Assembly: GCA_041651195.1 (NCBI GenBank)
Contig: JBAZJR010000001.1
Coordinates: 7,601-71,600, forward strand
Direction: 5' to 3'
Origin: Patescibacteria group bacterium
Lineage (GTDB): Bacteria; Patescibacteriota; Patescibacteriia; Patescibacteriales; UBA12465
Length of the DNA: 64,000 nt
Part shown: positions 14,362-46,478 of the stretch, in pieces
How positions within the stretch are numbered: position 1 is the stretch's first letter
How the letters are laid out: each line of letters begins with the position of its first letter
Translations under genes and position numbers: made by a program
The notes under the pieces: model-generated
Seen by the model: the letters and a program-made list of their open reading frames with translations, nothing else
The model's database searches: none
Told to the model about the DNA's origin: nothing

Positions 14362-15114
14362 ATGTCCATGGAGAAGAAAACAATCATCATTGCCGGCCGG
14401 AGTGTAAGCTATCTGGTCAGTCCCGGTCTTAAAAATGATCAGACCATAGTATTTTTGCCGGGCTGGAAGTCTCCGGTCGATTTATTCTGCTCGGTGATGG
14501 GTGATATGCCCAATCTGCTAGCGGTCAATTTTCCGGGTTGGCCGGGCAGCGAAGCGCCGGATAAAGCCTGGGGCTTGGCGGAGTATGCTGATTTTTTAAA
14601 GACTTTTTTAGAGAAAATAAATATTCGACCCGCCATCCTAATCGCCCATAGCGTCGGCGCCGCTATCGCCATTGAATATCTGAGTCGCGGCGGCCAAGCC
14701 AAAAAATTAATCCTAGTAGACGGCGCCGTCATCCGGGAGAAGTCAGGGAAGGCGAACGCGCTTTTTGTCGGCGCCAAGATTTTTCGTTTTTTATTCCCCT
14801 TCGTGGGCAGGAAATGGCGGCAGCGTCTAGGCGGCAAATTGTTGAGCGTGGACTATCGCGAAGCGGGTGAGTTAGAGAAAACCTATAAGCGCCTGATCAC
14901 TGAAGATCGGCAAGCTTTTTTCCGAGCCTTAGACTTGCCAATCGCTATGGTTTGGGGTCAAGATGATCAAGACACTCCTTTGGATCAGGCGAGAAGATTA
15001 GAGCGCCTGCGTCCGCAGACCGCCCTAGAAATCATCCCCGGCGCCGGCCATTATTGTTTTTTAGACAAGCCCCGGGAGTTTAAAGCTATCTTAGCTAAAT
15101 TATTATGGATATAA
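14362..15114 (+). CDS. alpha/beta-fold hydrolase
   Basis: Nucleophile elbow IAHSVGAA (GxSxG-like). A C-terminal GAGHYCFLD supplies the His of the triad. Confidence 0.75.
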   Translation: MSMEKKTIIIAGRSVSYLVSPGLKNDQTIVFLPGWKSPVDLFCSVMGDMPNLLAVNFPGWPGSEAPDKAWGLAEYADFLKTFLEKINIRPAILIAHSVGAAIAIEYLSRGGQAKKLILVDGAVIREKSGKANALFVGAKIFRFLFPFVGRKWRQRLGGKLLSVDYREAGELEKTYKRLITEDRQAFFRALDLPIAMVWGQDDQDTPLDQARRLERLRPQTALEIIPGAGHYCFLDKPREFKAILAKLLWI

Positions 15115-32436: not shown

Positions 32437-33201
32437 CTATTCTTTGCTGATGCTCCAGAGCGTTTCAAACATCAGCCTGTTCATCTCATAAATATCTTTA
32501 TTTTCGATCAGTATGGAGATTATTTTTCCCTTATTGATAACCTGGAAAGATATTTTGCCGTCATAAATCTGGATAGAAGTCTTGAAGGTGGCGGACAGAT
32601 TCTCTAAATAACGGATAGCCGTTATTTTTTCATATTCAGAATTTTGTTCACTCCCTTGATCGGGCCGTTCACCGACACGGATAATTTTTTTCTTTATTCC
32701 GAGCTTCTCTCGTTTTTGTTTATATTCCAGATTGGCTTCTTGAAATTCACCCTCTTCATTAAGGGCTTGTTTATTCAGGAGAAGATAGATTTCCGTTTTG
32801 CTCGATAAAGTGTCTTCTAAAATTTTTCGCAGCCCTTCTTCTCCCTCATAAAATCTCACTCCCGGCTTATTGCTGATCAGGCTATAAGCGGAAATCAGGT
32901 CGGGCAGGGCGTTGATGAATTCCTGTTTATGCTTGATCGCTTCTTTTTCTTTCTGCTCAGCAATTGTCTCTAAATTATAGGGGTGTTCGGCGGCAAAAAT
33001 AGTGATACCCTTAACTTCCTCGGTCTTGGAGACTAAATTGAGCCTAATTAACTCATCCAAGCCTTTATAAGCGACCCCGCGGGGCCGTTTTATTTTTTTA
33101 GCGATATTACTGGCCTTGTCAGGGCCGGAATTCAGCAGGGAATCCAGGATTTCCGCCTGGACCTTGGATAAGCCGAGATTATAAAGAGTTTTTTCGTACA
33201 T
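32437..33201 (-). CDS. TrmB-family transcriptional regulator
   Basis: N-terminal wHTH (LGLSKVQAEILDSLLNSGPDKASNIAKKIKRPRGVAYKGLDELIRLNLV) followed by a TrmB-like C-terminal domain. Confidence 0.75.
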   Translation of the reverse strand: MYEKTLYNLGLSKVQAEILDSLLNSGPDKASNIAKKIKRPRGVAYKGLDELIRLNLVSKTEEVKGITIFAAEHPYNLETIAEQKEKEAIKHKQEFINALPDLISAYSLISNKPGVRFYEGEEGLRKILEDTLSSKTEIYLLLNKQALNEEGEFQEANLEYKQKREKLGIKKKIIRVGERPDQGSEQNSEYEKITAIRYLENLSATFKTSIQIYDGKISFQVINKGKIISILIENKDIYEMNRLMFETLWSISKE

Positions 33202-33441
33202 ATATTTGTTTTTTATTGTTTTAATAGTGGCTAGGGGGGATTCTTCCTGTGGATAACTTTACAAAAATTAAGTTTTATTTTGTTAGTAGTTTAAGGGTCA
33301 CATTAATCCATAGTCATATTATAGCGCATATTAAATATAGTGTCAACTCTTAAAATGACAAAAAAAGAAAATAAATATGCGTATTTAAAGCATTTCTGTC
33401 TATATTTTAATAACATTTGCCAAAAATAGTCTTTTTAAGTC

Positions 33442-33470
33442 TTGACAATTATCTCAGAGCGTGCTAAACT
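33442..33470 (+). promoter_or_regulatory. near-consensus sigma70-type promoter at the head of the island
   Basis: TTGACA (33442-47), a 17-nt spacer ending in TGc (extended -10), then TAAACT (33465-70). The predicted TSS is about 33477. Confidence 0.7.
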
Positions 33471-33584
33471 TAAGTTATCGAAAATGAGAAAGGAAAGAAA
33501 CGGGCAAAACGCAGTACATTACATTCAAATAAAATAATGGAAGGAGAGAGCCATTATCAACTTAGTTTACTACGATCTTTATAT

Positions 33585-33651
33585 AAAGGGGTATTAGGCG
33601 GGTTAAGCTTTCTCATTCTATTAGAAAGTTTTTCCGCTTAGTACCCTTTTT
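33585..33651 (+). terminator. long three-tier hairpin ending in a U-run (attenuator/terminator candidate)
   Basis: Pairings AAAGGG/CCCUUU, GGCGG/CCGCU and AAGCUUUCU/AGAAAGUUU, with U47-U51 at the 3' side. It lies about 110-175 nt after the predicted TSS. Confidence 0.45.
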
Positions 33652-34265
33652 GGTTGGAAGAGAGCGGATAGTCATGGAGAGGAGAGAGATTTAGTCCCTG
33701 CGCTAGCGCCCACAGCCTAGAGCAGCTCTAAATAAGAAGCGCGGCCGATCGGAACTAAAAATATCATTTGGAAACGCCACCCCATGCCGTTTCCCAAAAT
33801 TCCTTCAAGGACGCCGAATAAACTCCCCTTCATAACTATCCGCTTTGAGCGGAACCGAAGCGATTGCGGCACAATTGCCCCAATTATTTAGGGAATAAAT
33901 AAATCAGTTAGATCAGCTTATCGATTTTAGGAGATCAAATGGACACATAAGCTTTAAGAATAAAGCGGAGAGGGTTCATCTCCTGAGATTAATAAAGATT
34001 TAACAGTTTGCTTCCGGGATCAACCCGGGATCAGGCGGGAAGTGAGTCAGAGCCGAGTAGCGTCGCAAACCGCCGCGGAGCCGAGACGATCCTAGTAGCG
34101 CGTGGCCCAGTTATCCTTAACGGGATGAGCAAGCTCCGGGAACGGCACGAACGCCACCGTCTTCTTACGAGGAGATCGGCTGAGCCCCAAGCCTTGAACA
34201 AGCTTAGGCCCAGAAATTTCCTCGGAAAAGTATAATTAGCCGAGAAAAAGTTCTTTGAAACTAAT
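33652..34265 (+). ncRNA. candidate large structured non-coding leader RNA (class unknown)
   Basis: About 600 nt with no credible ORF. It is more GC-rich than the flanks and dense in local hairpins (for example GGAAACG/CGUUUCC at 33770-94 and GGAGA-GGGUUCA-UCUCC at 33967-84). It is co-oriented with the operon. Confidence 0.3.
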
Positions 34266-34289
34266 TTGAAAACAAAAAAGGAGTCCCGC

Positions 34290-34517
34290 GTGAGTAAAGT
34301 AAGCGCGGGAAAGGATATGAGTGATATTCAAATTCAATTGGTAAATGCTGGTCTAACCACCCAGCAAAAAATTGACGAAATCAATCGCCAGAAGGCGATT
34401 GATAAAAATTTTGTCCGGGTTGCGCGAAAAGCAAAACCCGGAGTTTCTCCCAAAATTTGGGAGAAATATGCCCGCTTGAAAAGGCAGGCGTCAAAAGATT
34501 TACAGTTTGTATACTAA
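34290..34517 (+). CDS. small basic protein (75 aa), unknown function
   Basis: The GTG at 34290 lies 6 nt after AAGGAG (34278-83). The ORF track opens at an upstream TTG (34266) that lacks an SD. Confidence 0.55.
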   Translation: MSKVSAGKDMSDIQIQLVNAGLTTQQKIDEINRQKAIDKNFVRVARKAKPGVSPKIWEKYARLKRQASKDLQFVY

Positions 34518-34631
34518 ACTGTAAATCAAGTTTCAAATTGGTTTAGCTTATCCCAAATCAAAAAATAAGCAGGCTATCCCACCGGATCGCCGGAGCTATT
34601 TCTACGCTCGAAGCGTCCATAAAAAGTTTAA

Positions 34632-34710
34632 AGAGCAGTGTCGTTCAAACATTGCTCTCCCTCCCGGGATGCGTGTTCCGGCTGATGAGTCCGAAAGGAC
34701 GAAAGGGAAG
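34632..34710 (+). ncRNA. hammerhead ribozyme copy 1 (type III) with 5' P0 hairpin
   Basis: P0 AGAGCAGUG/CAUUGCUCU. CCCUC with cleavage predicted after C34663. Stem I CCGGGA-UGCGUG-UUCCGG. Core CUGAUGA. Stem II GUCC-GAAA-GGAC. Then GAAA and GGGA. Confidence 0.9.
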
Positions 34711-34745
34711 TTCTTTGAAATTAAATTCATTAAATAAAATGCGGC

Positions 34746-34766
34746 TCCGACGTATTCGGGCAAGGA
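34746..34766 (+). promoter_or_regulatory. conserved leader hairpin plus SD (copy A)
   Basis: UCCGA-CGUAU-UCGGG hairpin, then cAAGGA, with the ATG 5 nt later. It is preceded by an A-rich tract and GCGGC. Confidence 0.7.
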
Positions 34767-34771
34767 ATAAG

Positions 34772-34990
34772 ATGGAAGAATTATTGAAGCAGCTCGGTTT
34801 TTCTAAAAGTCATAATCAATATGATTATGACAAGCATATAAAAAATAGAATATACATAACAGTTTATCCCAGCGGTGAAGGCTGGGAGGTGGCTGTTAGT
34901 TCTGAAAATTCGGACGGGAGCGCCAATACCATTTTTCTCGGCGCAACCACTGAGAAGAAAATAAGCCTCTTAGTTGAAGCGTTATTCTAA
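34772..34990 (+). CDS. small protein (72 aa), unknown function
   Basis: The ATG at 34772 is correctly spaced from the SD of leader copy A. The longer tracked ORF (from 34652) would read through the ribozyme. Confidence 0.6.
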   Translation: MEELLKQLGFSKSHNQYDYDKHIKNRIYITVYPSGEGWEVAVSSENSDGSANTIFLGATTEKKISLLVEALF

Positions 34991-35173
34991 GTAGACTTTA
35001 AATTTGGCAACGCAGCGGATTCTGCGGGATATACTTTTGACTCAAGTTGAGTTAAAAGCGGTTAGTTGATTATCCTTTAAAATCAGCGAGACTAGAAATT
35101 TAAATACTCATATAAATCTAAGTGAGTTCTTAGAGGAAACTGAGGAGATACTAATTTCTAGGGGAGAAGCGTC

Positions 35174-35485
35174 ATGTTTTTACTTAACGCTTTTTCCCTC
35201 AACATGATTTCTATCTTTCCGATAGCCATCAAGGTTGAGGAAATCTCTTTAGAGCAGGCTAAAGCCCTAGCCGCTGAAACTATTTCAGCAGTCGGTCACG
35301 CTGATACAGCTAATGTATTCAGCAGTGTTCTTGGGGTTAATGTGCCGACAAACAGAACGACCGTCGTCCTTAAAAAAGACGATCAAGCTCTCGTTGGTCA
35401 GTATATTGGGCCTCGTCTTCCGGAAGGGGCAACAACCTTACCGGAAGGCGCCACCATCAAGTGGCTCTTAGTTACCTTAGGGTAA
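35174..35485 (+). CDS. DUF1874 / AcrIII-1 (Crn2)-family ring-nuclease-like protein
   Basis: LLNAFSLNM N-terminus, AVGHADTA (conserved GH), NRTTVVLKKDDQALV and GPRLPEG. This matches the pattern I recall for STIV B116 / SIRV1 gp29. Confidence 0.7.
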   Translation: MFLLNAFSLNMISIFPIAIKVEEISLEQAKALAAETISAVGHADTANVFSSVLGVNVPTNRTTVVLKKDDQALVGQYIGPRLPEGATTLPEGATIKWLLVTLG

Positions 35486-35579
35486 TTAAGAAGAGATTGG
35501 GTGCGATTCGGGATTAAACCTTGAGGTTATGCTGTTAACCTTGCCGAATAAAAGCGGATCACCGCGACAGTAAGTTCAC

Positions 35580-35660
35580 GAGGGATGGCGTCAGTTCAAA
35601 CGTTGTCCTCCCTCCCGAGATGCGTGTCTCGGCTGATGAGTCCGAAAGGACGAAAGGGAA
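35580..35660 (+). ncRNA. hammerhead ribozyme copy 2 (type III) with 5' P0 hairpin
   Basis: P0 AGGGAUGGCG/CGUUGUCCU. CCCUC with cleavage after C35614. Stem I CCGAGA-UGCGUG-UCUCGG, a compensatory G:C to A:U change relative to copies 1, 3 and 4. Canonical core. Confidence 0.9.
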
Positions 35661-35789
35661 GTTCTTTAAAACCAGGCATTAATGGATTTAATTATTTTTT
35701 GAGATGTTTTTATAATTGTGTTCGTTCCGTCCAGATGATTTAAAGACGAATCGGATAATAATTAAATTCATTAAGTAAAAAAATGCGGC

Positions 35790-35810
35790 TCCGACGTATT
35801 CGGGCAAGGA
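35790..35810 (+). promoter_or_regulatory. conserved leader hairpin plus SD (copy B)
   Basis: Identical to copy A (UCCGA-CGUAU-UCGGG-cAAGGA). About 50 nt of upstream sequence (ttaaattcattaa.taaaa..atgcggc) is also shared with copy A. Confidence 0.7.
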
Positions 35811-35816
35811 TGAAAG

Positions 35817-37538
35817 TTGAAAAGGATTATAGTTTGCGGGCCACCCCATAGTGGAAAATCAGTGTTTTTAGCGAATCTGATGCGGCTGCTACCGCCAGAT
35901 TCGTTTTATTTAGCCTTCGCCGCTCCGGACGGCGAATGGCATTGGAGTAATTTCGGTGACCAGGATCTCGTATCCGTAGTTCGCCAGAAAGGAAAGTTCT
36001 CCGAGGATTTCGTTTCCTCAATGGAGAACGCCATTCGGAACAACCAGCAGCCGCTCGTGTTGGTTGACACCGGGGGAGTAATGTCCCCGGAAAACGGGCG
36101 GATATTTGATGTTTGCGAAGGGTGCATCATCCTCGCAAACAGCGAGAAAAGTAATGACGCAATTCCTGCCTGGCGTGAATTTGCCGCTAGCCATAGCGTG
36201 CAGGTTCTGGCCGAAATCGTTAGTGACCTTCATGGCACTAATGAACTCATCTCGTCGGGAGATGGGGATGGCGGGAAAATTATCGGTCGGATTGCCGGCC
36301 TTGAGCGCGGGCAGACAATTAATTCGCCCGTGCTGGAGGCGGTGGCAAACCGCCTGCGGGAAGTTATCCGGAGCAATTCGGAACTGACCGAAGGCGAGCT
36401 TCTTTGTAATGTGAACGGCGCCACTCTCGTGGACCGTATCGGCATTACCGAAAAGAATGACCCTTTCCTGGGGGTCAGGCCGATTCATCTCCAGGATGCC
36501 CTGCGTCTGACTAGTGCAGTGGCAAAATTAGAGACTGTGCGCATTTGGAATGTGCGCGCAGCTATCCTGGCCTGTGCTATGGCGAGCAGGTTCTCTGGCA
36601 ACATTGAACTATATGATGTTGCTAAGGGATATTTTCGTATCCCGGATGCGGTTCCGCAAGGCGCAGGGTGCAAGGATTGCGGTGTCGAATGGGAAGTGTT
36701 AGAGCTCCCCGAATTTACACTGGTTAGATTCCGTCCAACGCGGTTTATTACCGAGCGCGATTTGCCTAATATTTATCCTCCGGTAGTTGACACCACCAAA
36801 CCGGTCGTGATTGCTCACGACGGACCGCCGATGTGGCTTGATGCCACGGTAGTTCGTGCTTATTGGCGCTCGGGCGTGCCATACGTGGCTATGCTTTGGC
36901 CCGTGGAAAGTGCCCGCTCCCAAAAGCATCTTGGCGGGAAAAAATGGGATAAGGTATACCCGTTTGCTGGACCGGCCGTGGTAGTTGCTGGATCGGCAGA
37001 GAAAATCGGAGACATTATTCCAGTCTCCTTTGACCTCTTGAAATGGGACGCGCCGGTTGTTGGAAAATTAGCGTCTGGGCAAATAGTGATTGATCGCAAG
37101 GACAGCCATGTCCAAGGCCATTCCGAAGTCCTTCCTCTTCTTGTGGAAGCGCTTGCAAAGATCCATGCTATGGACCGTAAGAGTTTCTGTGAAGAGATAA
37201 GATTTTGTCGTACCATAGGCGAAACAATCTGCATTAATACAACTGACGCTGATGAAATTATTTATGCTCAACGCCCAAATCGCCGCGGGTTGACGCGGTT
37301 TGTCAAAAATCGTCAGCCCGAAGCAACCAGTTCAGTGGTTGCTTGCTTCATGAAAAATGATGGTATGGGAGGAGCCTATCTTCTCACAACCGCATTTATT
37401 GGGAGTCGCGCTCCTGCCGAGCCGTGGGACAAGCAGTGGGCGACCGAGGAATCGGCTACTTTCTGGAATACCCATGCTTTGATTTTTGAGAAATCAGAGA
37501 TCGTTGATGGGACTGAAACTGATAAGTGCCCATGGTAA
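35817..37538 (+). CDS. P-loop NTPase fused to a large C-terminal region with possible Csx3-like segments
   Basis: The TTG start lies 6 nt after the leader SD. Walker A is CGPPHSGKS and Walker B-like is LVLVDTGG. Segments RIWNVRAAILACAMA...ELYDVAKGYFRI and HDGPPMWLDATVV...VAMLWP...GPAVVVAGS are present. Confidence 0.7.
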   Translation: MKRIIVCGPPHSGKSVFLANLMRLLPPDSFYLAFAAPDGEWHWSNFGDQDLVSVVRQKGKFSEDFVSSMENAIRNNQQPLVLVDTGGVMSPENGRIFDVCEGCIILANSEKSNDAIPAWREFAASHSVQVLAEIVSDLHGTNELISSGDGDGGKIIGRIAGLERGQTINSPVLEAVANRLREVIRSNSELTEGELLCNVNGATLVDRIGITEKNDPFLGVRPIHLQDALRLTSAVAKLETVRIWNVRAAILACAMASRFSGNIELYDVAKGYFRIPDAVPQGAGCKDCGVEWEVLELPEFTLVRFRPTRFITERDLPNIYPPVVDTTKPVVIAHDGPPMWLDATVVRAYWRSGVPYVAMLWPVESARSQKHLGGKKWDKVYPFAGPAVVVAGSAEKIGDIIPVSFDLLKWDAPVVGKLASGQIVIDRKDSHVQGHSEVLPLLVEALAKIHAMDRKSFCEEIRFCRTIGETICINTTDADEIIYAQRPNRRGLTRFVKNRQPEATSSVVACFMKNDGMGGAYLLTTAFIGSRAPAEPWDKQWATEESATFWNTHALIFEKSEIVDGTETDKCPW

Positions 37539-37579
37539 TAATCAGTATAAACCAATAGATAAATCATAAAAACCGCGGC

Positions 37580-37604
37580 CCCGACGGTCAAATCGGGCAA
37601 GGAG
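37580..37604 (+). promoter_or_regulatory. conserved leader hairpin plus SD (copy C)
   Basis: CCCGA-CGGUCAAA-UCGGG, then cAAGGAG, with the ATG 5 nt later. It is preceded by aaaaaCCGCGGC. Confidence 0.65.
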
Positions 37605-37609
37605 AATTA

Positions 37610-38005
37610 ATGATGAAAACTACAAAATTTTTTGCAAGTTTAGGTGTTGTCCCTGGTTATGGCCACGATAACGCGACTGACGCCAGTGCGGTTGATATTG
37701 CTGGCAACGCCTGGCAAGCAGCTGCTGCAGGCGTGTTCGCTGAACAAAAAGTTTACGTCGGGGCGATAATTACGCCAGCCCGTACGGTTTACCATAAAGA
37801 CTGGGGTTGCCCAGTCGGTGGCGAATTAACGGTTTTGATTACTGGGGAACGCAACCCCCAGTATACGGCGGAAGAAAACTTCAAGACGGCCGTAGTTGAA
37901 ACTTTAAAAAGGACTGCTCAAGCGTTGAAGCAGTCTACCACGCAGGTAACTTTTCAGGAAGTCGATATGGAATATCTTGACTTTCGTGAAAAGAAGCCTG
38001 AATAA
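37610..38005 (+). CDS. hypothetical protein (131 aa)
   Basis: Good SD and spacing. No recognisable motif. Confidence 0.6.
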   Translation: MMKTTKFFASLGVVPGYGHDNATDASAVDIAGNAWQAAAAGVFAEQKVYVGAIITPARTVYHKDWGCPVGGELTVLITGERNPQYTAEENFKTAVVETLKRTAQALKQSTTQVTFQEVDMEYLDFREKKPE

Positions 38006-38064
38006 AGTTGCGGATCCTCTAGTCCACGGAGGAATTGGCTAAGCCAGTGGAAAGTTCATGAGAC

Positions 38065-38144
38065 AGAGCAATGATAGTTCAAGCATTGCTCTCCCTCCCG
38101 GGATGCGTGTCCCGGCTGATGAGTCCGAAAGGACGAAAGGGAAG
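38065..38144 (+). ncRNA. hammerhead ribozyme copy 3 (type III) with 5' P0 hairpin
   Basis: P0 AGAGCAAUG/CAUUGCUCU, a perfect 9 bp. CCCUC with cleavage after C38097. Stem I CCGGGA-UGCGUG-UCCCGG. Canonical core and GAAA-capped stem II. Confidence 0.9.
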
Positions 38145-38164
38145 AACATTAAAAACTTAATAGG

Positions 38165-38236
38165 GTTTGACTGCGAACCGAGTCTCGGTGCGCCAGTTTT
38201 TGATTTAGCTGGCCGAGATTGAGTTAGCAGTCAAAC
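38165..38236 (+). promoter_or_regulatory. structured 5' UTR of the MoxR-like gene
   Basis: Outer 10-bp helix GUUUGACUGC/GCAGUCAAAC encloses CCGAG / CUCGG / CCAG...CUGG / CCGAG segments. The central CUCGG can pair with either CCGAG. Confidence 0.5.
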
Positions 38237-38266
38237 TTAAACAAAAAACAAGAGGAGGAGTTAATC

Positions 38267-39493
38267 ATGGATGCTATAGTAAAAAAGTTGCAAAATAATG
38301 AGACGGAAATTTGCCGTCTCTTAATTGGACGGAAAGAAGAAGTCCGAGGTATTTTCTTGGCGGTTTTAGCCCGCCAGCATGCGATTCTATTCGGGCCGCA
38401 CGGTGAAGCAAAATCAATGCTTTTGGATTACTTTGTAGAAGGTATTGATGGCGCGTCGGTATTTACTAAAACCGTAGCGCAGGATACTTTACCGGATGAT
38501 CTCTTTGTAGCCGCTTACGATTTTCTCATGGAAAATCTGGAAGGCGGCAAACAACGCAACATTACGGAGCCGATTACGACCGGTATGATGCCGGAAGCGC
38601 ACTTTGCAATGTTGCGGGAATTATTCCGATGTTCCGGGCCTACTTTAAATGCTTTATTAACCGCTATCAACGAACGCTATTATGAGGTTCGCGGCCAGCG
38701 GAAGAAAATGCCTTTAATTTCTGTCTTTGGGGACACTAATAATCTCCCCGGCGAGGATTTGGAAGCTTTCTATGATCGCTTCATGCTCCGGTATGTAGTG
38801 GATCGTATTGCCGAAAAATCCGAAAGGATCCGGATGCGCCAGTTATCTCATCAGCGTCGCCAAGGCAACCCGAGCGCTAAACCTAAATTGAGCAAGGTCA
38901 CTTTAGAAGAACTTGCTTCAGTTCAGGAAACAGTGCTCGCCGTTGACATTAATGAGCGGATTGATGATCTTATTGAAACCATAATTGAAAAACTTTACAG
39001 CGAAGGAGTGATCATTTATGGCCGACGTGATGTTCGTCTTAATCCATTGCTTCAAGCCAACGCCTATTTAGAGGGTCGGGACGAAGTAACGGAAGCGGAT
39101 CTCGTCGATGTTCTCCCGCATGTGCTCTGGGATAATCCGGATCATCAAAAGTTGGTTCGCAAAGTTATCTTATCGGTCGCTAATCCGCTTGGTTTATTAG
39201 TCCAAGAACTATTGGACGAAGCCAAGGAATTACGTGATGCCGCCATCAGTCGCAAGAAAGATGACGGAAGCGATAAGAACGACGCGGAATATAATCGCGG
39301 TGGGTCAGAAGCTAACGCTAAACTTAAAAAGTTAATTTCTGGCGACGATAACGCCGGCATTAAAGGAATAACTCAACTTTTTGAGGAAGCAAAAAAATCT
39401 GGCTTCCCAACCAAAAGCATCCAGGACGCTTTAGATACAGTTAAGCGCTATCAGCGCGATGTGGCTAAAGAGGTTATGGGTTTTGACGTTTAG
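38267..39493 (+). CDS. RavA-like MoxR-family AAA+ ATPase (atypical Walker B)
   Basis: Walker A is [35 protein letters not shown] aligns with my recollection of RavA ([23 protein letters not shown]), so the Walker B Asp is Arg here. An [10 protein letters not shown] block is also present. Confidence 0.8.
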   Translation: [408 protein letters not shown]

Positions 39494-39506
39494 GAGAGGA
39501 GGGGCC

Positions 39507-41096
39507 ATGAAAAAGACTGAAAACGTCGTATATTCTGACCGCTACGATAAAAGGACTTTTGAGTCTATAAAGTCGCGGGCGGCCAGAATACAAGAATTGG
39601 AAAATAAAGGTCTGGAGAAGTTGCCAAGTTATTCGCCTTTACTTATGGATTTGTATTCAATTCTGTACAAGACAGATCCGATTTTGAAGTCTAAAGAAAA
39701 AGTAAAGGCGAGCGAACTCATCAACAGGAATATAATTGAAAAAGTTATGGATACCAAGCAGTATCCAGAACTACGAAGTTATACCTATTTGGATGAATTC
39801 GCTAGCTCCATGGCTGTCCTGTCGTTGGGCGAAGCGGTCTTAGAATTGATTCCTGAAGATGCAAAGCAGAAAATGCAAAACATTAAAAGTCAGGAAGATA
39901 ATCAGTTACAAGGTCTGCAAGATCAAGCAGAGCGGGCGCAGGAAGCAGCAGATTGGGCAAGCGATGAGGCCCAGGAAGCAGCCGATGCCGCTCGCGAAGC
40001 AAAGAAAAGTAATAGTTCGCAAGCTAGCAAATTTCAGCAACGGGCGCAACAAGCTAAAGATAGAGCGCAGCAAATGTCCGATCAAGCCGAACAAGCTCAA
40101 ATGACATTTGAAGAGGCGCAACAGAAGCTGGCCGAGCAGGCGGAAGCAATTGAGCAGGAACTGGAGGATGGAGCGGGCGAGAAAATGCGCCAAGCGATTC
40201 GTAAGGCGGCTAAGCAGTCACGCGACCAAGCGGAAGAGCAGACTGAAACTTTAGAAGCTTGGGGCACGGAGCCCGGTGAGATCCAGAAGTTATCTTATGA
40301 GGATAAGATGGCTTTAGCCGAAAGGCTGAAGAACAATAAAAAACTTCGTGAGATAGCTAAAATCGTCGGGCGTTTCCGTCGGATGGCTATTGCCAAACAA
40401 AAGGAGAAAATAAATTCTCGGACTGGCGTCGTCACTAACGTGAAACGAGGTAATGATTTGCGGAGATTAGTTCCGGCTGAACGCTCTAAATTCGCTCATC
40501 CGTCGATGCGATTAGATTTCATCCGTCGCTTTGCTTCTAAGCAATTATTTGTCTTCGAAACCGAAGAAAAACAAAGTTTGGGACAAGGTCCGGTGATAGT
40601 CGGCATTGATAATTCTGGATCAATCACTTCCGAACAGGAAATTTGGGAAAAAGGTTTAGCGCTTGGATTATATCAATGCGCTGATTATCAGAACCGCCAT
40701 TTCATATTCATTCAATATGGCGGACCCAGCGATCCTCTCAAAGTGATTGAGATTAAAAAGGGTGAAGCGAGCTATTTGAAGCTCCTAGAAGTAGCTGAAT
40801 ATTTTTTGGGCGGTGGCACTGACTTTGAAAAGCCGTTGAAGAAAGCACAAGAATATATTGAGAAAGGACTAAAAGCCGATATCGTTTTTATTACGGATGG
40901 CGAATGCGCGGTTTCCAGCGAATTCTTAATAGAATTCAATGAAGCGCGCAAGAAAATCCCTTTTAACGTATTCTCCGTTCTGCTTAATATCGGCGGTCGG
41001 ACCAGTTCGGCCAGCCTGGAAAAGTTTAGTGACGAATTATTCAATGTCAGCGAGCTCACGGTTGAGCAAGCTGGCGCGGTGTTTGCCCGGGTTTAA
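39507..41096 (+). CDS. VWA-domain protein (ViaA/CobT-like) with a central Gln/Ala/Glu-rich coiled-coil
   Basis: The ATG at 39507 follows GGAGAGGAGG. The MIDAS motif is VGIDNSGS, followed by GGGTDF and VFITDGE. The tracked ORF start (39459) overlaps the upstream gene. Confidence 0.8.
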   Translation: MKKTENVVYSDRYDKRTFESIKSRAARIQELENKGLEKLPSYSPLLMDLYSILYKTDPILKSKEKVKASELINRNIIEKVMDTKQYPELRSYTYLDEFASSMAVLSLGEAVLELIPEDAKQKMQNIKSQEDNQLQGLQDQAERAQEAADWASDEAQEAADAAREAKKSNSSQASKFQQRAQQAKDRAQQMSDQAEQAQMTFEEAQQKLAEQAEAIEQELEDGAGEKMRQAIRKAAKQSRDQAEEQTETLEAWGTEPGEIQKLSYEDKMALAERLKNNKKLREIAKIVGRFRRMAIAKQKEKINSRTGVVTNVKRGNDLRRLVPAERSKFAHPSMRLDFIRRFASKQLFVFETEEKQSLGQGPVIVGIDNSGSITSEQEIWEKGLALGLYQCADYQNRHFIFIQYGGPSDPLKVIEIKKGEASYLKLLEVAEYFLGGGTDFEKPLKKAQEYIEKGLKADIVFITDGECAVSSEFLIEFNEARKKIPFNVFSVLLNIGGRTSSASLEKFSDELFNVSELTVEQAGAVFARV

Positions 41097-41141
41097 TGCG
41101 GGCAACGCCGTTAATCTAATAAATATAACTAAATAATAAAT

Positions 41142-41175
41142 CCGGTCCGCGGTGAGACGCGGCAGCATTTACCGG
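41142..41175 (+). promoter_or_regulatory. nested hairpin in the 5' UTR of the 407-aa gene
   Basis: CCGG...CCGCG-GUGAGA-CGCGG...CCGG, followed by an A-tract and AAGGAGG. The inner hairpin resembles the one over the 34290 start codon. Confidence 0.45.
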
Positions 41176-41194
41176 AAAAAACAAGGAGGAAATA

Positions 41195-42418
41195 ATGCGA
41201 TATATTAGTTTTTCTGATATTAAGTCCGCCGTAGATTTATATCATGGTTTACCGGCCGCCACCTTTTTCAAAGGGTTGACCGGTTATGGGTTAGTTTCCG
41301 AAGACGGAGTGGAGAGTATTGGCAAGATCGGACCTTGGTCCGGTATTTGGAAGCCGATGTATTTCTTTATTTCTGGCGGACAGCAACAAGCTTCTAAAAT
41401 TTTAACTGCTGATGATATTAAAAAATCAGTAGAAAAATTTTTAGGAAATGAGCTGTTTGCTCTGTTGCGAGTAAAAACCGGAAAAGGAATTAGATTGAAT
41501 TCTGGGTTTCCAGAAGTAGTTGATTCCGCCAAATCTGAAACAGAAATCAGCTATGAGTTAAATCATTTCGGCGGACGGTCAATTACACCACGGCTGGAAG
41601 TCGGACTTAACTCCTTGCAGGATCCCAATATAAAATGGCAGTCGGGATTCCTGTATCAAGATAAAAATCATGTTGCCCCAAAAATAAATAAGCGATTGTT
41701 GCTTAGTCGCGTTTTGGTGCAAAGTGATTTTGCTGATCAGGCTAGTTATGAGATAGCCTGGCAGGAAGTGGAGAAAGAAATAAAAAGATTGCTTTTTATG
41801 CACTGTGAGGGCAATCTGGTGAAGGTCGCGACTAATGGTGGCGATCGCGTTAGAACGTTTTTTTCACAGGAACTGACTGGTCTGTTGCCGCACAGTCAGA
41901 TAGACAAAAAAAAGGGTTTTGATTATTCTCAACGTTCGGACGGAACGGTAGTAATTCAAAAATCCGTTCAGCCTCGGGAATATCAAGATGCCGGAACATT
42001 CGAAAAGTATATGGAAGATTTTACGAAAGAATGTTCTCGCGTTTACACCCTTTATTGCCAGCCGCTATCCGATGCTCAAAGGAAAAAACTAGGCAAGCCA
42101 GGCAATGAAGAAGGCGAACTAGTTTTTACCGCCAACGGCGATTTTGAACGCGATGAAAGACGTTCAAATGAAGATAATGAACAGCTGATTATGTGGCGTC
42201 ATCGTCGCGGTGCGCCCCATTTCCCTTATGAAGGCTGGCAGCCGGAGAAGGGAAAAGATTACTATGTAATCTGCCATAAGTGGGGGAATGGTTATCGAGT
42301 ATCTCCTGGCTCGGCTCGCTATGAGCAAAGAACAGGGGAAAAATTCATTGAAAAAATTAAAAAGGAGTTTGACGGCAGCGAGAATGTGATTGCCCAGACT
42401 CCAATCGTTAGTTCTTAA
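41195..42418 (+). CDS. hypothetical protein (407 aa), third gene of the MoxR-VWA block
   Basis: Strong SD (AAGGAGG). No motif recognised. Confidence 0.65.
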   Translation: MRYISFSDIKSAVDLYHGLPAATFFKGLTGYGLVSEDGVESIGKIGPWSGIWKPMYFFISGGQQQASKILTADDIKKSVEKFLGNELFALLRVKTGKGIRLNSGFPEVVDSAKSETEISYELNHFGGRSITPRLEVGLNSLQDPNIKWQSGFLYQDKNHVAPKINKRLLLSRVLVQSDFADQASYEIAWQEVEKEIKRLLFMHCEGNLVKVATNGGDRVRTFFSQELTGLLPHSQIDKKKGFDYSQRSDGTVVIQKSVQPREYQDAGTFEKYMEDFTKECSRVYTLYCQPLSDAQRKKLGKPGNEEGELVFTANGDFERDERRSNEDNEQLIMWRHRRGAPHFPYEGWQPEKGKDYYVICHKWGNGYRVSPGSARYEQRTGEKFIEKIKKEFDGSENVIAQTPIVSS

Positions 42419-42430
42419 AAAAGTTCAAAA

Positions 42431-42506
42431 AAGTGAATAGCATAGTTCCTTTAGGTCTATTCACTTCTTTTCTGAAATCAGCAAGTGATTGGTGATTTCA
42501 GAGAAG
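42431..42506 (+). terminator. two tandem hairpins downstream of the 407-aa gene (weak terminator or processing site)
   Basis: AAGUGAAUAG/CUAUUCACUU (10 bp, loop contains UAGUUCC) is followed by CUUUUCU. Then CUUUUCUGAAAUCA/UGAUUUCAGAGAAG (14 bp with one G:U). Confidence 0.4.
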
Positions 42507-42610
42507 AAAATAAAGGCGGAGGAGAATATTTTATAATTTCTCTCCTATAATTCTGTTCTTTTCCGCTTTTTCTTCTAGTTCATTAAAAGTTGAATAAGGC
42601 CAAGATTTTT

Positions 42611-42657
42611 TAGCTACTATTTCTGGGGTTCGGATAAAACTCTAGAAATAGTAGCTA
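42611..42657 (+). other. perfect 14-bp hairpin with a GUUC-containing loop (ribozyme-less P0-like element)
   Basis: UAGCUACUAUUUCU, a 19-nt loop GGGGUUCGGAUAAAACUCU, then AGAAAUAGUAGCUA. It lies 30 nt upstream of leader copy D. Confidence 0.6.
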
Positions 42658-42687
42658 AACAAATTAAACCAATAAAAAAATCGCGGC

Positions 42688-42710
42688 CCCGACGTATTCG
42701 GGCAAGGGGA
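42688..42710 (+). promoter_or_regulatory. conserved leader hairpin plus SD (copy D)
   Basis: CCCGA-CGUAU-UCGGG, then cAAGGGGA, with the ATG 4 nt later. It is preceded by aaaaaaaUCGCGGC. Confidence 0.7.
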
Positions 42711-42714
42711 AATA

Positions 42715-43095
42715 ATGAAAAAAATAGTAATTTTTTCTTTACTGTTATTGCTGTTGCCGGCCTGCCGGGATAGCCAAGTTGACTTAGAAAAATCTGGCAT
42801 CAAAATTGGCGGAATAGTAAAGTCGGAATACGGAAATATAGCTATAACCGACATTAGTAGTCGCGCGGAAACGGCAGATTTTTCCGTATTTCGATTGACA
42901 GGGATTCTGTATGTTGACTCCATCGTGGCTTATACATCGTGGAGCTCAAGATACTTCAATGGCCCCGCCTGGCATGTCCTAAACAATGGACGCAGCTACT
43001 TTATCAGGGGTGACAACGGGAATTATTCATATTACGATATGGATCTCGATTATGCGAGATTTTATACAATAATTTCTGAGGTTCGCCAGAACTAA
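42715..43095 (+). CDS. putative lipoprotein (126 aa)
   Basis: Signal peptide with a lipobox: MKKIVIFSLLLLLLPAC. Confidence 0.65.
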   Translation: MKKIVIFSLLLLLLPACRDSQVDLEKSGIKIGGIVKSEYGNIAITDISSRAETADFSVFRLTGILYVDSIVAYTSWSSRYFNGPAWHVLNNGRSYFIRGDNGNYSYYDMDLDYARFYTIISEVRQN

Positions 43096-43120
43096 AAAGG
43101 GAAGCGTTAAGTTTTTAGCA

Positions 43121-43200
43121 AGGGTGGCACTCGTTCTATTGCCGCCCTACCCTCCCGGGATGCGTGTCCCGGCTGATGAGTCCGAAAGGACGAAAGGGTA
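43121..43200 (+). ncRNA. hammerhead ribozyme copy 4 (type III) with 5' P0 hairpin
   Basis: P0 AGGGUGGCA/UGCCGCCCU. ACCCUC with cleavage after C43154. Stem I CCGGGA-UGCGUG-UCCCGG. Canonical core. The outermost stem III pair is flipped to A:U (ACCCU/AGGGU), where the other copies have U:A. Confidence 0.9.
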
Positions 43201-43245
43201 ATCTACTAAAAATTATATCAACGCAATAAAAAAAATAAAACCGTG

Positions 43246-43268
43246 CTCGACGGTTATCGAGTAAGGAG
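43246..43268 (+). promoter_or_regulatory. conserved leader hairpin plus SD (copy E)
   Basis: CUCGA-CGGUUA-UCGAG, a compensatory C:G to U:A change, then uAAGGAG, with the ATG 5 nt later. It is preceded by aaaaaauaaaaCCGUGC. Confidence 0.65.
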
Positions 43269-43273
43269 AGATT

Positions 43274-43480
43274 ATGGATATCCAAGAATTTAAATATTTG
43301 TTATCCACTGAGCTTAATAGTGCTGGAATAAAGAACGTCCTCATTAAAGAGGACGGGATAACAATAATTAGGGGCGTTGTTAATGTCCCTAACGAAGAGA
43401 TACAAAACTTTATCGATCGTTATGGGGATAATCCCCTGCCGATTGAGAAGTTATTTGTTTGTGTAAGAGTGCTTCAATAG
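43274..43480 (+). CDS. small protein (68 aa), unknown function
   Basis: Good SD and spacing. It lies entirely between ribozyme copies 4 and 5. Confidence 0.55.
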   Translation: MDIQEFKYLLSTELNSAGIKNVLIKEDGITIIRGVVNVPNEEIQNFIDRYGDNPLPIEKLFVCVRVLQ

Positions 43481-43488
43481 TGTTCAAG

Positions 43489-43587
43489 AGGGATGACGTC
43501 AGTTCAAACGTTGTCCTCCCTCTCAGGATTATATCCTGACTGATGAGTCCTCGTTTTGCCACTAGGGCGGACAAAGGACGAAAGGGA
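43489..43587 (+). ncRNA. hammerhead ribozyme copy 5 (divergent type III)
   Basis: P0 AGGGAUGACG/CGUUGUCCU. CCCUC with cleavage after C43522. Stem I is fully replaced but still paired (UCAGGA-UUAUA-UCCUGA). Core CUGAUGA. Stem II GUCC...GGAC carries a 25-nt insertion. Then GAAA-GGGA. Confidence 0.85.
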
Positions 43588-43595
43588 AAATCGAG

Positions 43596-43638
43596 ACGGC
43601 CGGAATTATGTTATAAACGGCCGGGAATTATGCTATAA
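43596..43638 (+). repeat. tandem direct repeat (21 + 22 nt)
   Basis: ACGGCCGGAATTATGTTATAA / ACGGCCGGGAATTATGCTATAA. Each ends in an extended -10-like TGnTATAA. Confidence 0.8.
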
Positions 43639-43645
43639 TATGATT

Positions 43646-43753
43646 AACCGCCTTTGAAGCGTAGAGCGTAAAAGACAGAACATTATTAAAACTCTCTCTC
43701 CTTAATACTGTACTTTCTTTTTACAACGCTCTACACTTGAAGGGCGGTTTTTG
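43646..43753 (+). terminator. long inverted repeat plus U-run: probable terminator of the island operon
   Basis: 24-nt arms (43646-69 and 43726-49) with 21 Watson-Crick pairs, 1 G:U and 2 mismatches. The loop is 56 nt and is followed by UUUUU. Confidence 0.6.
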
Positions 43754-43760
43754 CTATAAT
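43752..43760 (+). promoter_or_regulatory. extended -10 element (TGCTATAAT), candidate ftsK promoter
   Basis: A perfect TGnTATAAT 55 nt upstream of the ftsK ATG. An identical copy lies at 43631-39. Confidence 0.5.
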
Positions 43761-43814
43761 AAAAGCAGATTAATAAGAAACCGCCTAAAATAATGGTTTT
43801 TCCATTTTTTATTT

Positions 43815-46478
43815 ATGTCTAGACGAAAAAAGACTAACCCCTTGGATTATATCGCTCTGCCGGAATTCAATCTGGACGAGAAAGCGAAGCGCAGCATCTT
43901 GATCGTGATCCTGCTCGTTTTCGGGCTGATCAGCCTGCTCGGGTTATTTAATTTAGCCGGCCATTTCGGCCTCTTTATCTCTAAATGGCTCACGCTTATC
44001 TTCGGTTTCGGCAAATGGCTCGTGCCCTTCATCTTCTTATATTGGGCCCTGGTCTTAGTTCGGAAAGCCAAGCGGCCTCTGAAATTTACGGATTCTCTCG
44101 GCCTATTCCTATTATTCATCTCCTATCAGACTCTTTTCCATTTTTTCCTGGAACCGGCGCGCTGGGAGAGCGCAGTCGCGATCGGGACGGGCGGCGGCTA
44201 TATCGGCTGGTATCTGAGCCGTCTTTTCTTTTACGTTTTCGGTTTTTGGGGCGGAGTTTTGGTCTTAGCCGCCTGCCTCTTGATTTCTCTAGTCTTGGTC
44301 TTCAATACTTCATTATCCCGTCTGATTGGCCAGGATAGTTTTTTCGCTAAGCTCTTCCGCCCCTTCGTCTGGTTTTTTAGGAGCCTGTTCAGCGATTCTG
44401 GCGCGACAGAGGAAAGAGAGAACGAAGGGAAAAAATATATTGATGAGGCGCGTGAAGAGATTTTGGAAGCCTGGCAGAAGAAAGAGGTACCGGCGAGCCT
44501 GGAAATAATCGAGGAAGAAATCGAAGAAGAACCGAGTCCGGCCGCAGCCAAAAAAGATAAGCCGAAAGTCCAGGAAAAGATCGTCTGGCCGAAGCGTTCG
44601 ATCAAGATTGATATGCCGCTCGAACTCCTGAATAATAAATCAGGGAAGGCCATCGGCGGCGATACGGAACTCAATGCCCAGCGGATCCAGAAGACGCTAG
44701 AAAAATTCGGCATCAATGTCGAGATGGGTGAGACTAAAGTCGGTCCGACCGTGACCCAATATACTTTCCGGCCGGCCGAAGGCGTAAAATTATCCCGCAT
44801 CACGACTTTGAATAATGATTTATCGCTAGCCCTAGCGGCGCATCCGATCCGGATCGAAGCGCCGATTCCCGGCAAATCTTTAGTCGGCGTGGAAGTGCCG
44901 AATCGCGCGAAGGCGATCGTCGGTCTGCGAGAAATCTTGGAAGATAGCGCTTTCAAGAGCCGGAAGAATAATCTTTTCATCGCTCTCGGCAAAGACGTGG
45001 CTGGCACGGCTTGGCTCTATGACTTGACCAAGATGCCGCACCTGCTTGTCGCTGGCGCCACCAATTCCGGCAAGTCGGTCTGTTTGAACGCGATCATCGT
45101 CAGCCTGCTCTATCAGAATAATCCGGACGATCTGCGTTTTATCATGGTCGATCCGAAGCGGGTGGAGCTCCCGACCTATAACGGCATCCCGCATCTTTTG
45201 ACGCCGGTCATCACCGATGTCAATAAGACGATCAACGCCTTGAAATGGTGCTTGAACGAGATGGAACGGCGCTATGATGTTTTAAATAAAGCGGGAAAGC
45301 GCAATATCCAATCGTATAACGCGGTGAGCAAGGAAAAATTACCCTATATAGTCTTCATCATCGACGAACTGGCCGACTTCATGATGACTTCCGGCAAGGA
45401 CATGGAAGCGGCGATTATCCGTCTGGCGCAGATGTCGCGCGCTATCGGCATCCATTTGATCCTGGCGACCCAGCGGCCGAGCGTCGATGTCATCACGGGC
45501 TTGATCAAAGCCAACGTGCCGACGCGCATCGCTTTTTCCGTCGCTTCTCTAGTCGATTCAAAGACGATCTTAGATTCTTCCGGTGCGGAAAAACTATTGG
45601 GCCAGGGCGATATGCTGTTTATGTGCGCGGAATTCGCCAAGCCGAAACGCATCCAGGGGGCTTATCTGAGCGATGGCGAAATCAACGATGTTGTGAATTA
45701 TATCAAGGATAAGAGCGGTCCGGCTGAATATCTGGAGGGCGTCACCGACCGCCAGAAAGTCGGCGGCAATGCCGGCGTCGGCCTAGACGGCAACCACGGC
45801 GATGAGGATGAATTATTTGAAGAAGCAAAAGCGATCATCATCAAGGCCGGTAAGGCTTCAACCTCTATGTTGCAGCGCCGCCTGTCTATCGGTTATGGCC
45901 GCGCCGCTAAGATCCTCGATATGCTAGAAGAGGCGGGCATCATCGGTCCGTCTAACGGCGCCAAACCGCGCGAAGTGATGATCAGCCAGGAACAATACGA
46001 AGCGATGGGCGCGAGCCCGCTCAGCGGTTTGCCGGTGCATAATCGAAATGAGGCCGTTGCGCCGGATAGTTATTTAGGCGAAGATGAAGAGGAGGAGGGC
46101 GATGACGGTACTCTGGTCTTTAAAGGCGAGGACAATCGCGTCGCGGAGATTGACGAGGAGGCTGACGAGGAAGAAGCGGCAGAAGGCATTGCCCAAGAAG
46201 AGGAAGAAATAATTAAAGAAAGTTTTGCGGAGGAGCTGGAAGACGCAGAAGAAGCCGATGACGATCTGCCGGCAGAAAAAATAGAAGCTGAAAAGATCAA
46301 GGAAGAATTGCTATTAACGCCGGATGAGCAGGATGAAGTGATCGAGGATGAAGATGAGATCTTGGCGGAAATCAGGGAGAAGAAAAGCGCGCCGGCGTCT
46401 CCGGCAGCCAAGTCTTCAAATCCGGCCAAGAAGCATAATCCGCTTGAAGATGATGACGAGATGTTTTTCGCGAAATAA
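43815..46478 (+). CDS. ftsK: DNA translocase FtsK/SpoIIIE with an acidic linker and tail
   Basis: N-terminal TM helices, Walker A VAGATNSGKS, IIDELADFMM, and a gamma-domain-like SMLQRRLSIGYGRAAKILDMLE. Confidence 0.95.
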   Translation: MSRRKKTNPLDYIALPEFNLDEKAKRSILIVILLVFGLISLLGLFNLAGHFGLFISKWLTLIFGFGKWLVPFIFLYWALVLVRKAKRPLKFTDSLGLFLLFISYQTLFHFFLEPARWESAVAIGTGGGYIGWYLSRLFFYVFGFWGGVLVLAACLLISLVLVFNTSLSRLIGQDSFFAKLFRPFVWFFRSLFSDSGATEERENEGKKYIDEAREEILEAWQKKEVPASLEIIEEEIEEEPSPAAAKKDKPKVQEKIVWPKRSIKIDMPLELLNNKSGKAIGGDTELNAQRIQKTLEKFGINVEMGETKVGPTVTQYTFRPAEGVKLSRITTLNNDLSLALAAHPIRIEAPIPGKSLVGVEVPNRAKAIVGLREILEDSAFKSRKNNLFIALGKDVAGTAWLYDLTKMPHLLVAGATNSGKSVCLNAIIVSLLYQNNPDDLRFIMVDPKRVELPTYNGIPHLLTPVITDVNKTINALKWCLNEMERRYDVLNKAGKRNIQSYNAVSKEKLPYIVFIIDELADFMMTSGKDMEAAIIRLAQMSRAIGIHLILATQRPSVDVITGLIKANVPTRIAFSVASLVDSKTILDSSGAEKLLGQGDMLFMCAEFAKPKRIQGAYLSDGEINDVVNYIKDKSGPAEYLEGVTDRQKVGGNAGVGLDGNHGDEDELFEEAKAIIIKAGKASTSMLQRRLSIGYGRAAKILDMLEEAGIIGPSNGAKPREVMISQEQYEAMGASPLSGLPVHNRNEAVAPDSYLGEDEEEEGDDGTLVFKGEDNRVAEIDEEADEEEAAEGIAQEEEEIIKESFAEELEDAEEADDDLPAEKIEAEKIKEELLLTPDEQDEVIEDEDEILAEIREKKSAPASPAAKSSNPAKKHNPLEDDDEMFFAK

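Follow-up and report, generated by a model that had tools for sequence, protein, structure and literature searches.

In Gram-positive bacteria, the leader stem-loops of aprE and ermC and the polypurine 'STAB-SD' of cryIIIA (SD, Shine-Dalgarno sequence) act as 5' stabilisers of mRNA and are thought to block 5'-to-3' decay. Compact H-type pseudoknots at ribosome-binding sites (RBS) include those of the preQ1-I/II and SAM-II riboswitches, T4 gene 32, rpsO and the alpha operon. RiboJ, a synthetic insulator, places the sTRSV hammerhead ribozyme and a 23-nt hairpin ahead of the RBS (PMC6206723). Ribozymes of the hammerhead, twister and pistol classes cluster with certain bacterial and phage-like genes, for a reason stated as unknown in a review (PMC6765202). 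The element described here is a leader that recurs before five genes of a mobile island, in a 64-kb stretch of the genome of a Patescibacteria group bacterium (assembly GCA_041651195.1, contig JBAZJR010000001.1, positions 7,601 to 71,600; hereafter the window). Its strand-specific, start-codon-anchored nature as an RNA leader is supported by recurrence and position. It probably adopts a compact H-type pseudoknot, or else two alternating states, right next to an SD rich in purines. The element is real and previously uncatalogued, and its sequence family lies outside Rfam; leader stem-loops and small pseudoknots beside ribosome-binding sites are kinds already known.

Like the Gram-positive stabilisers, the leader pairs a stable fold with a polypurine tract that resembles a strong SD. 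Unlike them, it recurs ahead of many cistrons in a single island, and a second helix crosses the first. The stabilisers sit near the 5' end of a processed or primary transcript, at mapped termini of single genes.

Leader copies and their start codons

The pattern CGACG-N(2-8)-TCGRG-Y-AAGG has 5 matches in the window, all on the + strand; 0.01 matches are expected by chance (100 shuffles). The matches end 4-7 nt ahead of the starts 34772, 35817 (TTG), 37610, 42715 and 43274, and the recurrent leader that an earlier sequence-only reading had placed before these five genes is present at all of them. In the following rows S2 is the hairpin, S1 is a second helix between the hairpin loop and the segment just upstream, and L3 is the third loop.

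Copy A, 34729..34774, + strand: leader before a 72-aa open reading frame (ORF), ATG 34772, 49.9 bits; A-rich run, S1 5' strand AUGCG (34739-34743), linker GC, S2 5' arm UCCGA (34746-34750), loop/S1 3' strand CGUAU (34751-34755), S2 3' arm UCGGG (34756-34760), SD AAGGA (34762-34766).
Copy B, 35774..35819, + strand: leader before the 573-aa AAA-Csx3 gene, TTG 35817, 51.9 bits; S1 AUGCG (35783-35787), S2 arms 35790-35794 and 35800-35804, loop CGUAU, SD AAGGA (35806-35810).
Copy C, 37563..37612, + strand: leader before a 131-aa Mvol_0529-family gene, ATG 37610, 52.5 bits; S1 ACCG (37572-37575) pairing with CGGU (37585-37588), S2 arms CCCGA (37580-37584) and UCGGG (37593-37597), L3 CAAA, SD AAGGAG (37599-37604).
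Copy D, 42672..42717, + strand: leader before a 126-aa orphan lipoprotein-like gene, ATG 42715, 55.1 bits; S1 GCG (42683-42685) pairing with CGU (42693-42695), S2 arms 42688-42692 and 42698-42702, SD-like AAGGGG.
Copy E, 43231..43276, + strand: leader before a 68-aa ORF, ATG 43274, 24.6 bits, outside the training set of the model given below; S1 AACCG (43239-43243) pairing with CGGUU (43251-43255), S2 arms CUCGA (43246-43250) and UCGAG (43257-43261), SD AAGGAG (43263-43268).

Copies A and B have the hairpin arms UCCGA/UCGGG, C and D have CCCGA/UCGGG, and E has CUCGA/UCGAG. The compensatory change from CCCGA/UCGGG to CUCGA/UCGAG (C-G to U-A) reported earlier for copy E is real. Copies A and B have about 50 nt in common, as had been noted, with one 3-nt indel, and an identical 20-nt core is common to A, B and D. 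Flanks of C, D and E are wholly diverged from A; similarity stops sharply at the motif borders. The loop begins with CG in 5/5 window copies. Its length is variable (5, 6 or 8 nt in the window, 5-9 nt over all copies), and its sequence differs widely. The distance from fold to SD is constant, 1-2 nt over all 11 copies known from the window and from related loci (1 nt in the window). Some details of the sequence-only reading are narrowed. Its (C)GYGGC box is GCGGC in A-D but GUGC in E; its (c/u)AAGGAG holds for C and E, where the hexamer AAGGAG is exact, but not for A (AAGGAA), B (AAGGAU) and D (AAGGGG); and the start codon, placed 4-6 nt past the hexamer, actually lies 4-5 nt past it in the window copies.

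The TTG start proposed for the 573-aa gene is backed by protein evidence. The Walker A motif GPPHSGKS occupies residues 8-15 of AAA-Csx3 counted from TTG 35817. An alignment of 35 full-length AAA-Csx3 homologues starts at residue 1, with C7, G8, S12, G13 and K14 invariant. The public gene call P0001 (558 aa) begins 15 codons late (window 35817-35861) and therefore loses the Walker A/P-loop.

Translation starts of island and host differ. The SD core is found in 3/31 host genes (window 1-33200 and 43815-64000), against a strong SD in every island gene (34266-43480). Among 36 loci encoding AAA-Csx3 homologues, which served as the comparison set (L numbers), the same contrast is seen in L012, with an SD in 0/6 flanking genes vs 3/3 island genes. 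In L022 (80% related, located at the same site on the chromosome) island genes resemble host genes in lacking an SD.

Covarying helices and further copies

A covariance model, R1, was trained on copies A-D and the two copies of L012; copy E was left out. R1 recovers copy E independently (24.6 bits, E-value about 5e-4 to 2e-3) and finds four copies in L152 (E-values 1e-4 to 7e-4). No copy beyond A-E is found by R1 anywhere in the 64-kb window, and none in 25 related loci apart from L012. Within the window the motif is restricted to the island. The covariance search suggested by the earlier reading thus detects a held-out copy and extends the motif to L152. The 11 copies comprise 5 from the window, 2 from L012 and 4 from L152; 10 are distinct (4 + 2 + 4). 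The final alignment of the 11 copies was made by fitting to the covariance model. Pair counts from alignment A6, in which 9 junk sequences were fitted to the model, were excluded.

With Rfam 15 at the gathering threshold over the whole window, no family overlaps any motif copy. At E-values up to 1 over 30-50 kb no match lies on any copy, and at E-values up to 5 in short stretches around copies B and E there is none, riboswitches included. An exact-pattern scan of IMG/VR with CCGAGGGCAAAGTCGGGYAGAGG gave 0 matches. A scan with CCGACG-N(2-8)-TCGGGCAAGG gave at least 120 matches, which were judged to be chance: all are single, inside high-GC phage coding sequence, and without A-run, box or start codon.

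S2 is paired in 94.5% of cells over the 11 copies of the model-fitted alignment, with double changes in 3/5 pairs, and the hairpin is, as had been claimed, maintained by compensatory changes. Its covariation score over these copies is 0.389 vs 0.158 in shuffles and is reached by 1/500 shuffles. The 7 window and L012 copies alone contain a single compensatory event, with 73/500 shuffles as high (not significant). Pair C20-G33 never varies; pairs 21-32 and 22-31 are constant in 9/11 copies.

S1 is formed by the first 3-5 loop bases, which are complementary to the segment just upstream of the hairpin in 10/10 distinct copies. Its 5' strand ends 2 nt before the S2 5' arm in 8/10 copies and 4-5 nt before it in the other two. 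The S1 pairs of the window are AUGCG:CGUAU (A, B), GCG:CGU (D), ACCG:CGGU (C) and AACCG:CGGUU (E); those elsewhere are CCC:GGG (L012) and GCCU:GGGC, AUCCC:GGGAU and UAUCC:GGAUA (L152). Seven different complementary sequence pairs were counted across copies. When loops are swapped among upstream segments, P = 0.0125; when the upstream segment is shuffled, 0/5,000 reach the observed value (P < 0.0002). In alignment A7 the first S1 pair is G-C in one family and C-G in the other (window vs L012), and the observed score for both helices together is reached by 1/500 shuffles. The two crossing helices each show complementary variation, in a small sample of related sequences.

The elements are ordered as in an H-type pseudoknot (S1-5', linker, S2-5', S1-3', A-rich loop, S2-3'), and the first loop, L1, is 2 nt in 8/10 copies, an adequate length. 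The 'GYGGC box' is, on this pairing, better read as the S1 5' strand plus the 2-nt linker. In the earlier description, 'box + hairpin', the hairpin stands; the second helix was missed, and with it the probable pseudoknot. Similar in size to the preQ1-I/II, SAM-II, T4 gene 32, rpsO and alpha operon pseudoknots, the leader shares with them a pair of short helices that cross, a third loop rich in A and a location at the ribosome-binding site. Unlike those pseudoknots, it has no Rfam match at the permissive E-value given above, its SD lies outside the fold, no conserved sequence resembles a ligand pocket, and the genes downstream are unrelated.

Hammerhead ribozymes and homologous islands

Four hammerhead-like elements are present in the island.

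HH1, 34656-34710, + strand: hammerhead-like, type III, 39.5 bits, E-value 1.5e-5; about 31 nt before motif A.
HH2, ~35608-35665, + strand: hammerhead-like, 23.8 bits, partial match 35615-35654; about 120 nt before B.
HH3, ~43148-43205, + strand: hammerhead-like, 19.5 bits, partial match 43167-43195; about 36 nt before E.
HH4, 43515-43589, + strand: hammerhead-like, 34.9 bits; island 3' end, after gene E.

Full extents of HH2 and HH3 were taken from alignment to HH1. All four elements are below the Rfam gathering cut-off (48.5 bits); their cores are intact and their stems covary. According to the Rfam Hammerhead_3 alignment, the predicted cleavage site follows the 5' stem-III strand, so the ribozyme would remain on the downstream mRNA, as in RiboJ. 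The order hammerhead-motif-SD is seen in 4/11 copies, at distances of 14-120 nt: in 3/5 window copies (A, B and E, downstream of HH1, HH2 and HH3, as had been stated) and in 1/6 elsewhere (L152, hammerhead 4848-4902, 42.3 bits, motif copy 4916-4964, 14 nt apart). No recognisable ribozyme is found upstream in 7/11 copies: C, D, both of L012 (no known ribozyme by Rfam) and three of L152. No leader motif follows HH4. Hammerheads also stand directly before motif-less leaders in L006, L016 and at L152 position 2366. The leader is only loosely tied to hammerhead ribozymes.

The analogy to RiboJ drawn in the sequence-only reading holds for the order of parts in those four copies, which have a type-III hammerhead, a predicted 5'-side cut, a small fold and an RBS. 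An obligate arrangement is not supported: most copies have no recognisable ribozyme, and ribozymes also occur without the motif. Unlike RiboJ, the window element is natural; in place of a 23-nt hairpin it probably has a pseudoknot of ~20-25 nt; it stands apart from the ribozyme instead of being fused to it; and no gain in RBS accessibility is predicted. As in the ribozyme-associated gene neighbourhoods of the review (PMC6765202), four hammerheads lie amid phage-like/CRISPR-accessory-like genes, and homologous islands have hammerhead-like and other structured elements ahead of the same genes. That literature covers ribozymes; the review has no description of a recurrent pseudoknot-SD leader, no exhaustive check of the literature having been made.

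Two sequence features accompany the hammerheads. The string AGUUCUUURAA occurs at 34249-34259, 34709-34719 and 35660-35670 of the window. Two of these three exact copies come directly after HH1 and HH2; the third follows the GC-rich segment 34008-34240. Similar strings are found in L001, L004/L156, L026 and L152, and in L001 and L026 the stop codon of AAA-Csx3 is followed by GAAGUUCUUYGG. Ahead of HH2 and HH4 (window 35580-35612 and 43488-43520) lies a conserved 5' extension, GAGGGAUGRCGUCAGUUCAAACGUUGUCCUCCCUC. Base pairing is possible between its GAGGGA and the UCCCUC strand of hammerhead stem III, and could compete with ribozyme folding.

In homologous islands the motif is present in L012 and L152 and absent from the nearest relatives. 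L011/L012 (~52% AAA-Csx3 identity) carries two copies, one at the position orthologous to copy C, ahead of a weakly similar 135-aa gene. L152 carries four copies. No copy is found in six further homologous islands (L151, L153, L154, L156, L158, L150). The gene set carrying the motif differs from genome to genome, and one homologous island carries a serine recombinase. A third L012 hairpin (14967-14980) falls within the coding sequence of MoxR and was attributed to chance. An apparent 76-nt 'leader repeat' in L002 was rejected, since most of it is coding sequence from the 3' ends of upstream genes that are duplicated.

A second leader type is found in relatives. Its parts, in order, are GCCCAMG, a variable stem-loop with covariation, CACGGGC-AAG and an SD rich in purines. 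The preceding ORF often has its stop codon within the loop, which suggests translational coupling.

Second leader type, sites: L001 4743; L002 12594, 13444; L008 4836; L015 12631; L026 12658; L151 3453/4307/7203.

Many of the islands have this type, which makes a GC-rich fold next to the SD a theme of the whole family; the exact motif is a lineage-specific, modular form of it.

Other structured elements occur in the related loci. A conserved element upstream of AAA-Csx3 (L007 1-96, L014, L015 ~9910-10000, L019, L020) has the layout CUGAUAGAAG..GUCGC-loop(AAGAGUAA)-GCGAC..UAAA..ACUCUU, with the loop complementary to the downstream ACUCUU. Presumably this CUGAUAGAAG element resembles the pistol ribozyme, a likeness not confirmed by Rfam, which gave no match at the gathering threshold in L007 and L015. 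An element after the AAA-Csx3 stop (L001 3790-3900, L002 11695-11800, L007 1810-1940, L015 11715-11840, L026 11700-11820) consists of a long GGCGAGC..GCUCGCC hairpin, ACUUAUUCAGCU, a second hairpin and GUUGAUAGGG, followed by the next SD; no Rfam match was obtained at E-values up to 0.5 (L001, L002, L026) or at the gathering threshold (L015, L007). In L012 a ~100-nt repeat (9807-9905 and 12255-12352, 84-89% identical) lies upstream of AAA-Csx3 and of a 315-aa gene. It contains a GAGGAGGAGU..ACUCCUCC hairpin and has no Rfam match.

The island occupies 33.2-43.8 kb of the window, with every gene on the + strand. It is mobile and ribozyme-rich, with CRISPR-accessory-like genes; its genes encode Csx16/STIV-B116-like, 573-aa AAA-Csx3, Mvol_0529-family, MoxR and vWA proteins and several orphans. 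A homologue search with gene D recovered only gene D itself, which is classed as an orphan. Chromosome genes of the window include those of PolA, PNPase, Mur ligases, MurJ and FtsK. At the island head, ~1 kb (33202-34265) is without a credible ORF; this stretch has a near-consensus promoter TTGACA-17-TAAACT with TG (33442-33470) and the structured-looking GC-rich segment mentioned above. A weak match to 'drum RNA' is located at 34370-34480 (31.3 bits, below the gathering score of 43). A divergent TrmB-family regulator gene borders the island in at least 6 genomes: in the window (32437-33201, - strand), L022, L024, L154, L156 and L158. It either belongs to the island as its regulator or marks a conserved site of insertion.

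Function of the leader

The explanation preferred, tentatively, is a cis-acting leader module in which a tight fold forms a protected 5' boundary and allows an SD-driven start in an SD-poor host. The module would act on the sense transcript, in cis. It would consist of an A/U-rich single-stranded run, an H-type pseudoknot (S1 of 3-5 bp, 2-nt linker, S2 of 4-5 bp, A-rich third loop of 0-5 nt), a purine-rich SD 1-2 nt on, and a start 4-7 nt past the SD. It would have spread among unrelated cistrons of the mobile island. Cleavage of the island transcript may come from a hammerhead, with a 5'-OH left behind, or from a host endonuclease acting within the A-rich run. The tight fold beside the SD would then be a fixed, nuclease-resistant 5' boundary, and may also prevent the SD from being sequestered by the C-rich upstream strand. 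Each cistron would obtain a standard, autonomous, SD-driven start in a host mostly without SD.

Several observations weigh against this explanation. Closest relatives (78-81% AAA-Csx3 identity; L022, L024, L006, L149) lack the motif, so the genes as such can do without it; in these relatives the leaders either have other hairpins or are A-rich with no SD. The copies are often related by descent, with few independent covariation events and only three metagenomic genomes, and the S2 pair counts, taken from an alignment fitted to the model, lean towards structure. Three inner S2 pairs, invariant in 9/11 copies, could reflect sequence-specific protein recognition, not a purely structural role. At full S1 length, L3 is 0-2 nt in A, B, D and L152_564/2093, which is sterically too short; it is 2-5 nt when only the 3 junction-proximal S1 pairs form. 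Either only ~3 bp of S1 would form, or the helices would alternate. The claim that the hairpin keeps the RBS accessible gains no support from ViennaRNA modelling, which covers nested structures only: the native hairpin gives no predicted gain in accessibility over shuffled segments (unpaired probability from SD to start, shuffles at or above native in 0.23-0.57). With the hairpin segment removed, predicted accessibility falls in 5/5 window copies, a spacer effect.

The most serious rival, itself unlikely, is an operator for a trans-acting RNA-binding protein or site-specific endoribonuclease, island- or host-encoded, which would co-regulate translation of the cistrons or cleave them apart. The sequence-only reading had likewise offered a translational regulator's binding site as an alternative. 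The invariant and near-invariant S2 pairs listed above and the CG start of the window loops accord with it, as do the fully diverged flanks of C, D and E. Conservation extends to sequence as well as pairing, a property of known hairpins bound by proteins, such as the MS2 operator and the Cas6f repeats with their 5-bp stems and defined loops. In the relatives, the second leader type has a conserved internal loop and a covarying inner stem. Against a protein-bound site stand the wide variation of the loops in length and sequence (5-9 nt), the change of the motif-bearing gene set between genomes, and the island proteins, among which no RNA-binding regulator or Cas6-like nuclease is recognised. 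The S1 sequences are wholly different yet complementary, which is what a structural constraint predicts and a sequence-specific one does not. A two-state switch is very improbable. The C-rich strand would pair either with the SD (extended hairpin, OFF) or with the loop (pseudoknot, ON), as set by temperature, a ligand, or passage of ribosome or ribozyme. The nested minimum-free-energy fold does pair the upstream strand with the SD region in L012_1, L012_2, L152_167, L152_564 and L152_4962 and, more weakly, in window copies C, D and E, and in some copies the hairpin energies of S1 and S2 are comparable (-3.7 vs -4.3 kcal/mol in A, -6.6 vs -5.8 in L152_564). This SD pairing is, however, only 2 bp or none in window A-E, the unrelated genes downstream are unusual for a ligand sensor, and the surroundings of B and E match no Rfam riboswitch.

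Neutral duplication, DNA-level promoter or operator function and a minus-strand terminator are all ranked below an RNA leader. Neutral or near-neutral paralogous remnants, copied with gene cassettes or by gene conversion and with a functionless hairpin, are quite improbable. They would account for the ~50 nt shared by A and B, the identical 20-nt core of A, B and D, the motif-free nearest relatives and the non-significant S2 covariation in the seven window and L012 copies. They would not account for the abrupt end of similarity at the motif borders in C, D and E, the constant position relative to the SD in 11/11 copies, or the double changes that keep pairing in both helices across three genomes, with AAA-Csx3 only ~52% identical to that of the window. 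Least probable is an element of DNA or antisense function, a promoter/operator with its -10 in the A-run or a weak intrinsic terminator of the minus strand. TAAAAT- or TAAAAA-like hexamers do lie 3-9 nt before the box, and a terminator scan flags the reverse complements of C (37589-37571) and E (43255-43239). None of 25 promoter-like sites in 33000-44000 is directly at a copy (the nearest, CTGAAA-18-AATAAT, ends 33 nt before hairpin C), and no copy has a sigma-70 -35/-10 pair, though the canonical promoter at the island head is nearby. Spacing of the inverted repeat ranges from 5 to 8 bp, unsuited to a dimeric DNA binder. The minus-strand hairpins by the T-run are only 3-6 bp, 2/5 are flagged, with 6-pair stems that include G-T pairs, and the island has no credible minus-strand genes. 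Variable loop length and the lack of sigma-70-like promoters at the copies argue for an RNA-level, not a DNA-level, role; together with strand specificity and the constant 1-2 nt distance to the SD (1 nt in the window), they place this role at translation start.

A more specific form of the cis-acting module is doubtful. In it, the leader would be the portable expression cassette of ribozyme-rich Patescibacteria islands: a ribozyme or an RNase would cut the polycistronic transcript, a 5'-to-3' exonuclease would trim it back to the compact pseudoknot, a miniature barrier to that enzyme, and translation would start from the strong SD in a host that otherwise makes hardly any use of SD sequences. 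If this were true, it would give a first mechanistic reason for the clustering of self-cleaving ribozymes with these gene classes. The layout of ribozyme, A-rich spacer, small pseudoknot and strong SD is compact and testable and recurs before unrelated genes. If the fold fixes or protects the 5' end or insulates the RBS, it would be a natural counterpart of the synthetic insulators and a useful small genetic part. If it is a protein operator, this would suggest that translation of the CRISPR-accessory-like island genes is controlled in concert. Either way, it is a new small RNA motif with two covarying helices.

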